From NCBI GenBank assembly GCA_963758525.1, contig CAVWVQ010000003.1:1-64000 (forward strand): a DNA stretch of 64,000 nucleotides, given 5' to 3'. The DNA is from an uncultured Phycisphaerales bacterium. Lineage in GTDB: Bacteria; Planctomycetota; Phycisphaerae; Tepidisphaerales; Tepidisphaeraceae. Under the pieces are notes generated by a model. The model worked only from the letters and a program-made list of their open reading frames with translations, was not told the origin of the DNA and did not search any database. A program made the position numbers and the translations under genes. Below, in pieces: positions 43,528 through 44,566 of this stretch (its first letter is position 1; each line of letters starts with the position of its first letter).

Positions 43528-43619
43528 TTCCGGACCGAGGGTGCAAGCACCACTCGGCGTTCAAAATCGCTAAACGCTCTTCGCGAACGCCGAGCGGTGC
43601 TTGCACCCTCGGTCTGGAA
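43528..43619. repeat. Long palindrome (REP-like pair) downstream of the tRNA trio
   Basis: 35-nt arms 43528-43562 and 43585-43619, 33/35 complementary. Confidence 0.75.
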
Positions 43620-43672
43620 GCTGTGTGCTGCCGACGCATGATCACTCTCGTCCCCATCCGCCGCTCCCGAAG

Positions 43673-43745
43673 CGCGCCGCGCAGGGATCGAACCTGCCGC
43701 TTCTCGATTTGGAATCGAGCGTTCCGCCATTGGAACTTGCGACGC
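43673..43745 (-). tRNA. tRNA-Trp(CCA), non-canonical
   Basis: GCGTCGC/GCGGCGC acceptor, CTCGA-TTCCAAA-TCGAG, GCAGG-TTCGATC-CCTGC, G73; A8 instead of U8. Confidence 0.8.
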
Positions 43746-43760
43746 GAGGTGAATGCGCTT

Positions 43761-43846
43761 GGAGTCCGGCGACAAGTCGCTCGGCTCTGCGCTGACGCGA
43801 CGAATGCGCCCCCTTGGTATAAGAGACATCGTCAACACCGGACTCT
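43761..43846. repeat. REP-like element between tRNA-Tyr and tRNA-Trp
   Basis: 43766-43800 is 34/35 identical to 57798-57832; ends GAGTCCGG/CCGGACTC. Confidence 0.7.
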
Positions 43847-43850
43847 CTGA

Positions 43851-43936
43851 TGCGCAGGGAGGGATTTGAACCCCCGTAGGGTCGTGGACCCGTCGGTTTT
43901 ACGGACCGATGCGATTAGCCGCTCTGCCACCTGCGC
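43851..43936 (-). tRNA. tRNA-Tyr(GTA), non-canonical
   Basis: GCGCAGG/CCTGCGC acceptor, TCGGT-CCGTAAA-ACCGA, long variable arm GGGT/ACCC, A73; C33 instead of U33. Confidence 0.8.
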
Positions 43937-43974
43937 GAATTTCATTTTCTTGCTCCATCTCAAAACCGTCTCGA

Positions 43975-44047
43975 AGCCGCGTGCTGGAGTTGAACCAGCG
44001 ACCGGTCGCTTACGAGGCGACTGCTCTGCCAACTGAGCTACCGCGGC
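43975..44047 (-). tRNA. tRNA-Thr(CGT), slightly non-canonical
   Basis: GCC start, GTCGC-CTCGTAA-GCGAC, GCTGG-TTCAACT-CCAGC; G7-A66 mismatch. Confidence 0.85.
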
Positions 44048-44054
44048 GATGTTT

Positions 44055-44101
44055 TCAATTCACATGGGGGCTTGCTACGTTCAAACGCCAGCTTTTGCCA
44101 T
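44055..44101 (-). pseudogene. Remnant/mini-ORF matching the EF-Tu N-terminus
   Basis: ATGGCAAAAGCTGGCGTTTGAACGTAGCAAGCCCCCATGTGAATTGA reads MAKAAFERSKPHVN* after removing one G and one C; AAGGAG upstream. Confidence 0.6.
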
Positions 44102-44566
44102 GACGATTCTTCCGATGCTCCTTCCTGAAAACGGACTAACCGATGCGCAGACGCTCAGCCGGCATTTTGCCGTGCAGACGTTCATCCGCTTGGCGAAATA
44201 CAGAACGAACGCGCTTCAATGCGTCTAACTTCTTCCCAGTTTTATAGTAGTGATTACTGTTGACCGGGAAGAACTCCCGGCCGACACAGGCGAGGAGCTA
44301 CGAGCGCGTGGTGACGCCCAATGTCGTATACACGAATCGCCCTTCGGCGAACGTGTTACTTGTAGATGTATACCAATATTGCCGCATAGTTTTCTCCATC
44401 GACACAACGTGCCGAGTGAATGAATTATTCCATCGTGATTAGGGAATTGCAACTGCAAAATTGGAGAGAGAGATCGCACTGCCGCGGCGCCGTTGAAACG
44501 AACGAGCAGCCAGGACCGCGGTATATTCAATTGGCGGTTAGGGCTGTTCCTCGAACAAGGCGAGTC

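Follow-up and report, generated by a model that had tools for sequence, protein, structure and literature searches.

The DNA analysed here, referred to as the window, is a 64,000-nucleotide stretch from the genome of an uncultured Phycisphaerales bacterium of the family Tepidisphaeraceae. On its minus strand, genes for tRNA-Thr, tRNA-Tyr and tRNA-Trp follow the remains of a gene for elongation factor EF-Tu (tuf). A predicted leader, comprising a short upstream open reading frame (uORF) and a four-segment RNA element, is located 200-340 nt upstream of this EF-Tu stump (Table 1).

Table 1. Features of the leader, tuf stump and tRNA genes in the window
Feature	Position	Strand	Description and basis
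Sigma-70-like promoter, predicted	44424..44452	-	9/12 matches, extended -10
Small 5' hairpin, predicted	44400..44414	-	directly ahead of the Shine-Dalgarno site; fold
Shine-Dalgarno site	44394..44397	-	6 nt before the uORF start
Leader uORF	44298..44387	-	29 codons, with 7 Thr, 3 Tyr and 1 Trp; stop overlaps segment 1
Four-segment RNA element	44230..44299	-	segment 1, 44299-44289; segment 2, 44282-44273; segment 3, 44272-44264; segment 4, 44240-44230
Accessory tuf 5' stump	44055..44101	-	14 codons, two +1 frameshifts; ATG at 44101, TGA ending at 44055; tuf alignments
Spare tRNA-Thr(CGT)	43975..44047	-	ARAGORN; Rfam 60.6 bits; long-array type
Spare tRNA-Tyr(GTA)	43851..43936	-	ARAGORN; Rfam 48.2 bits; long-array type
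Spare tRNA-Trp(CCA)	43672..43745	-	ARAGORN; Rfam 33.1 bits (low); long-array type

The three tRNA genes named in the original prediction were borne out by ARAGORN and Rfam (the Rfam gathering score for tRNA is 29), with one G.A mismatch in the acceptor stem of tRNA-Thr and a weak D arm in tRNA-Tyr. Thr, Tyr and Trp tRNAs had been named as the usual neighbours of tuf; by sequence identity the trio is of the long-array type and differs from the housekeeping neighbours of tuf. The median identity to the same isotypes in the arrays of relatives was 81% (Thr), 73% (Tyr) and 85% (Trp), and the bases shared with the housekeeping copies of the same genome amounted to 51/73, 53/86 and 45/74, respectively. 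Housekeeping Thr(CGT), Tyr and Trp genes are encoded elsewhere in the genome, making the trio redundant to them. The view of the trio as housekeeping neighbours was rejected, as the single intact tuf of the genome is located on another contig than the window's and has other flanks, namely Thr(GGT) and a short gene, which by its motif we take to be rpmG, followed by Trp. In relatives, arrays of 25-29 genes carry Thr(CGT), Tyr and Trp in the same order as in the window. Being supernumerary, redundant and of array type and order, the trio would thus belong to the class of long tRNA arrays (L-arrays). Short palindromic repeats of two families, both present in many copies in the genome, were also observed at the locus, one between the Tyr and Trp genes (43755-43816) and the other directly past Trp (43528-43619).

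The stump reaches its stop codon after 47 nt, and tRNA-Thr starts 7 nt further on. When the first 45 nt of three tuf genes were compared with the 180 nt between the leader and tRNA-Thr, scores of 32, 46 and 52 were obtained; none of 4000 random genome windows reached any of them. The best score (52) was given by an accessory tuf and the lowest (32) by the tuf of this genome. The frameshifted 14-codon EF-Tu start that had been described is thus real, its likeness to tuf being above chance. Without correction the frame meets a stop after 6 codons. The extra bases had been described as one G and one C. Alignment with two orthologous accessory tufs upheld their number and the C, which lies in a C5 run (44070-44066), and replaced the G with an A in an A4 run (44096-44093); residue 4 of the corrected stump would be Leu, not Ala. 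The AAGGAG proposed as the ribosome-binding site of the stump ends 16 nt ahead of the ATG. Where the Shine-Dalgarno site of the ortholog is located, the window sequence differs by a single mismatch.

The orthologous locus (L146 and L154, one sequence in two assemblies, whose upstream flank is 79% identical to that of the window) consists of the leader, an intact EF-Tu gene of 400 codons and then Thr(CGT)-Tyr-Trp. The distance from the tuf start to tRNA-Thr is 1372 nt there versus 54 nt in the window, where about 1.32 kb of the accessory tuf is missing. This intact syntenic gene supports the proposal of an eroded accessory tuf-plus-tRNA operon. The alternative offered with it, in which the stump itself is a retained, EF-Tu-derived leader peptide sensing translation, appears very improbable. 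In the window, the stump carries two frameshifts and a weakened Shine-Dalgarno site, conserved RNA structure was not noticed at it, and a full leader lies upstream. The tuf N-terminus is also kept in two other relatives, which would suit a retained peptide, but breakpoints differ from locus to locus. At L259, tuf was deleted internally after about codon 33, and its N-terminus is joined to the last codons, as in a plain internal deletion; a stump of about 14-21 codons remains at L059; at L103, tuf is full-length but frameshifted, which may be a sequencing error. The same short ORF with its stop was not kept in relatives, apart from the junction shared with two close strains. As the extra A is absent from these strains, their stump may be in frame, which is the other point in favour of a leader peptide. 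The closing TGA of the stump aligns to the spacer before tRNA-Thr and is therefore a by-product of the junction. Judged by these comparisons, the stump is a relic of a deleted spare tuf, not a leader. Homology above chance, an intact ortholog and disabling lesions in the window together point to an accessory-EF-Tu pseudogene.

The missing tuf or the two indels could in principle be assembly errors. In a comparison with a congener covering 68.7 kb, frame changes were found in 9 of 61 conserved genes and stops in 2 more, although this comparison cannot tell which of the two genomes is wrong, and both indels of the stump lie in homopolymer runs. However, contigs of the two junction-sharing strains, obtained in two other studies (X3 record 20 and X5 record 28), bridge the junction between the stump and tRNA-Thr; therefore, the tuf deletion is not an assembly fault. 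Moreover, two independent errors within 47 nt would have a chance near 3e-5 at the measured rate, a value that homopolymers raise. A second placement of four sequencing runs on 44020-44150 yielded no matches. We therefore give assembly error hardly any weight as an explanation of the locus; that at least one of the stump indels is a sequence error is improbable to a lesser degree, and such an error would not restore tuf.

Second tuf genes were found repeatedly in the family. Two tuf matches were present in 10/141 family genomes, and two full-length genes in 8/141, the full second tufs being 64-70% identical to the housekeeping ones. All eight genomes with two full-length genes belong to the 48 that carry the RNA element, counted as kin and not as independent cases, and in four of the eight (4/141 family genomes) the second full-length tuf lies within about 5 kb downstream of the element. 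The stump would thus be the debris of a recurrent passenger, a divergent spare EF-Tu, in parallel to Streptomyces tuf3; the WblC regulon is described as including the spare EF-Tu tuf3 and six tRNAs (PMC7157823).

The idea that a leader peptide couples the tRNAs to translation looks right, with the reservation that the peptide was misidentified: the candidate is the uORF at 44387-44298 rather than the stump. Thr, Tyr and Trp account for 11 of its 28 residues, compared with 3.4 expected (binomial p = 2e-4). The uORF of the ortholog L146 contains 12 such residues out of 29, and its frame is kept through a 3-nt indel. The four differences between the two uORFs in 23 colinear codons are all residue-changing; therefore, it is the content that is kept, not the exact sequence. 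In 121 of the 136 non-redundant leader loci, a uORF was assigned under a start rule that favoured 22-42 codons and SD-like sites, and some of the 15 loci without a call are short of upstream DNA or are chance matches. The uORF stop lies 3-7 nt ahead of segment 1 in 118/136 loci. Of 102 uORFs, 67 are preceded by a promoter-like site similar to that of the window, the distance being exactly the same in 37 cases, in comparison to 0.6% of random windows. SD-like sites were present in 71/102 loci, their number being favoured by the choice of start, and a hairpin of -5 kcal/mol or better occurred in the pre-SD zone of 80/102 loci, as a raw count without a control. A short uORF with a ribosome-binding site and a stop fixed relative to an RNA element has the layout expected of an attenuator, and the leader is accordingly classed as a putative one.

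The RNA element was detected with an RNA model (R1) in 48 of 141 Tepidisphaeraceae genomes, mostly heading spare tRNA arrays, and in none of 149 other genomes of the phylum; the strict pattern had no match in 257 genomes of the class outside the family, and Rfam contains no family for the leader. One of the two congeners searched had no element match, and many of the family genomes are incomplete. Pattern scans retrieved 35 stretches from genomes, 117 from metagenomes, of which 80 had long flanks, and 8 from viral contigs, and the named records with the element were assigned to Tepidisphaeraceae or Phycisphaerales in 33 of 35 stretches. The eight viral matches, near-identical core hairpins with a plain U-tract behind and without tRNA or tuf, were taken as chance, as were two matches inside coding sequence (L069 and L107). 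In relatives, the element heads arrays of 18-29 tRNAs, in which any Thr(CGT), Tyr and Trp genes keep the order seen in the window.

Two mutually exclusive folds of the element were predicted, either 1:2 plus 3:4 or 2:3. For the window leader, the predicted fold is 1:2 plus 3:4 (-30.2 kcal/mol, z -3.1); taken by themselves, segments 2 and 3 pair into a hairpin of 8 bp (z -4.0). For the free RNA, 1:2 plus 3:4 was predicted in 99/99 loci; upon removal of segment 1, hairpin 2:3 was predicted in 99/99 before segment 4 is made and in 61/99 with segment 4 present. Among 50 aligned leaders, a compensatory signal was not found: 0/18 and 1/8 pairs had changed on both sides, which is no better than shuffles; the test is weak both ways, as the search pattern had a fixed element core. 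By eye, divergent loci showed a changed 2:3 loop with the stem kept and one two-sided change in helix 1. The nearly invariant, palindromic core would also fit a DNA operator for a repressor, with an incidental uORF, as at the trn promoter of Anabaena, whose long tRNA arrays are reported to be controlled by promoter repeats (PMC8421152). We give this explanation very little credence. The promoter-like site lies about 130 nt upstream of the element, whose variable paired positions almost exclusively swap G-C or A-U for G-U, and a DNA site would not explain the fixed stop codon and peptides that track tRNA content.

The relation between peptide and cargo was evaluated across the family. In 107 leader peptides less than 80% identical to each other, a mean of 16.8 distinct residues was found in 29.7, in comparison to 13.5 in proteome segments, 14.4 after nucleotide shuffling and 14.6 (sd 0.13) after pooled shuffling, for which the maximum in 1000 was 15.0. 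The uORFs ahead of full arrays contain 17-20 amino acids in 26-34 codons, and the seven loci with at least 15 amino-acid types in the array have leaders of 17-20 distinct residues. An apparently complete array was assigned to 41 loci, an assignment that may fail for arrays interrupted by a long insert; 11 loci with more than 12 amino-acid types were set aside, and the other 30 were permuted. The summed z for the match between peptide and array was 56.5 versus 3.3 (sd 5.3) on permutation and, with one locus per 45% cluster (22 loci), 38.9 versus 3.7 (sd 4.6); none of 20000 permutations reached the observed value in either set (p < 5e-5 for both), in a test that was devised after examples had been seen, has no held-out loci and treats kin loci as separate. 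The amino acids of an array were found in its own leader peptide in 161/162 cases versus 131 expected, and no enrichment (z at most 0.5) was seen in 9 of the 30 partial arrays. Examples of strong enrichment include 9 Gln in 28 residues before two Gln tRNAs and 9 Ala in 27 before an Ala tRNA. Among the divergent loci, which were inspected by eye, a Gln tRNA was preceded by a leader with a run of Gln and full arrays by broad leaders, and about seven leaders had no tRNA behind them.

In the genome studied, the best score of each leader peptide was obtained with its own cluster (z 4.5, 1.6 and 2.6), and the leader of the largest cluster contains no Thr, Tyr or Trp. In the ortholog of this largest array, the leader retains one Thr and one Tyr codon, and the array lacks those tRNAs. 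Matching at the anticodon level was not seen in the 10 loci inspected, the match being by amino acid: ACG accounts for 3/7 Thr codons in the window uORF, and GTC for 3/5 Val codons in the leader before a Val(TAC) gene. Leaders favour codons that are rare in this genome, e.g., 18% versus 1% for Leu CTA. The leader would thus be enriched, at the amino-acid level only, in the residues that its cargo serves, as in an attenuator. No tRNA was detected behind the leaders L133, L141, L151, L253, L261, L262, L263 and L265, which are followed by small unknown ORFs, a xylose-isomerase-like TIM barrel or a GNAT acetyltransferase; these loci may represent arrays that have decayed, or further members of the response.

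The genome (6.47 Mb in 6 contigs, 91% complete) carries two further clusters of unusual tRNAs on the contig of the window, and a 70-nt stretch, 44300-44232, recurs ahead of both. The three clusters have no isoacceptor in common and together comprise 25 isoacceptors, in comparison to about 30 in two full arrays. In this genome, the spare array is divided among three pieces that do not overlap, and each piece has a leader of its own. The largest cluster (C3:3763840-3764850) contains decayed remains of Val and Leu tRNAs and a short unexplained ORF; judging from the decayed remains, arrays therefore lose parts piecemeal. A gene for the tRNA ligase RtcB is located about 150 nt past the second spare cluster on the same strand (C3:3600677 onward; L250:2348), and an RNA ligase gene was found within another array.

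Our main reading, to which we assign a probability of roughly 0.7, is that the locus is one third of a split spare-tRNA array, with its passenger tuf deleted, and that its expression is likely turned on through ribosome-coupled attenuation in the Thr/Tyr/Trp-rich leader. In classic attenuators, alternative hairpins form among segments 1-4, and 3:4 plus a U-tract is the terminator. In the leader studied here, the uORF would be translated, and a ribosome reaching its stop codon would cover segment 1, letting hairpin 2:3 form, while slowing of the ribosome at Thr, Tyr or Trp codons would leave 1:2 and 3:4 to form. The 2:3 state would then halt transcription ahead of the tRNAs, and 1:2 plus 3:4 would allow read-through into the tRNAs, formerly together with the spare EF-Tu. 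The likely purpose is the replacement of lost or damaged tRNAs under translation stress; RtcB after the second cluster and the RNA ligase of another array hint at damaged tRNA as one of the triggers.

How transcription would stop is the least certain step. A U-tract was not found after hairpin 2:3, with a mean of 1.4 U in the first 8 nt, and the spacer past this hairpin is A-rich and then U-rich 14-19 nt on; U-tract terminators are present after some housekeeping tRNAs of this genome. Because of the missing U-tract, Rho-dependent termination is proposed as the most likely mode, tentatively and at slightly less than even odds. C/U-rich, G-poor RNA is a feature of Rho loading sites. The helix 1 loop is 76% pyrimidine, the later spacer is 9% G, and an exposed C/U-rich segment 1 together with the G-poor spacer would serve for loading. 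Rho is encoded in the genome, together with a paralog, a second and shorter Rho-like gene (C3:3994036-3995112) that scored below the family cut-off. Alternatively, the same Thr/Tyr/Trp-sensing uORF could set the processing or stability of the tRNA precursor, with the 3:4 hairpin protecting it or guiding a nuclease. Such a role would account for the lack of a U-tract after hairpin 2:3, for the conservation of segment 4 although it is made past the presumed decision point, and for first tRNAs that can begin 3-8 nt after segment 4 (9/112 loci). Nevertheless, we consider it unlikely, as a stop codon placed on segment 1 and mutually exclusive folds are reminiscent of transcription attenuators as described in PMC10274678, and Rho is available. 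The locus thus has a well-supported cargo-matched leader, which would work like an attenuator under the transcriptional reading but fails the test for an intrinsic terminator.

The closest known parallel is the uORF attenuator of whiB7/wblC in Actinobacteria, likewise a short uORF of variable sequence, in which the amino-acid content determines the signal that is sensed (PMC10274678). According to the same account, the whiB7 uORF senses the amino acids that it encodes, that of M. smegmatis has all but Cys, and stalling gives read-through (PMC10274678). In contrast to the present case, a transcription factor is controlled there, via a Rho-independent terminator (PMC10274678), whereas here the uORF lies directly ahead of tRNA genes, lacks a U-tract terminator and has a content that tracks the cargo locus by locus. 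The classic trp and leu attenuators have a leader rich in the cognate amino acid (PMC10274678), and the predicted leader shares with them both this trait and the alternative hairpins among four segments. Unlike in those systems, which control biosynthetic enzymes, the cargo consists of tRNAs, the stop codon is on segment 1, and the predicted off fold is 2:3. L-arrays, including the trn operon of Anabaena, similarly contain supernumerary tRNAs that are redundant to the housekeeping set, patchy in distribution and linked to rtcB (PMC8421152). The Anabaena array is reported to be induced by translation stress via promoter repeats, with rtcB co-regulated and TrcR as the repressor (PMC8421152; PMC10272220); in the genome studied here, by contrast, the array is in three parts, each with its own uORF element. 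The main texts on the Anabaena array (PMC8421152; PMC10272220) do not mention a leader or attenuation. Leader-peptide control of tRNA genes was not found in the literature searched, whose scope excluded most subscription journals.

We propose, with a confidence only a little above even, that Tepidisphaeraceae possess a modular tRNA thermostat. It would consist of a single RNA switch and a test peptide that can be rewritten freely and is re-spelled when an array splits or shrinks, so that each spare block, at times with a divergent spare EF-Tu or an RNA ligase, would be made only when the decoding of its own amino acids fails, without a U-tract terminator. The regulation of individual bacterial tRNA genes has been described as largely unknown (PMC8421152), and the worked-out array case that we found, Anabaena, uses a repressor. 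If the proposal is true, tRNA genes can sense their own shortage directly via a leader peptide. The family would also provide a natural series from all-amino-acid to single-amino-acid leaders, in which codon swaps give sharp predictions.

Further observations concern the arrays of relatives and other parts of this genome. One genome (G327) has four leader copies (L050, L067, L068 and L083), the peptides of which are still similar and mostly broad; they perhaps represent an early stage of re-tuning after duplication. A protein of 270-280 aa without a Pfam family recurs in or near arrays (L058:2391-3227 and 17 other loci, some of them overlapping), and the proteins resembling it are hypothetical ones from Planctomycetota and tailed phages; a query with this protein gave no match in the genome studied. 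Finally, five overlapping tRNA-Ser(GGA) calls spaced by about 78 nt were obtained at C3:4444824-4445528, probably a tandem repeat misread by ARAGORN.
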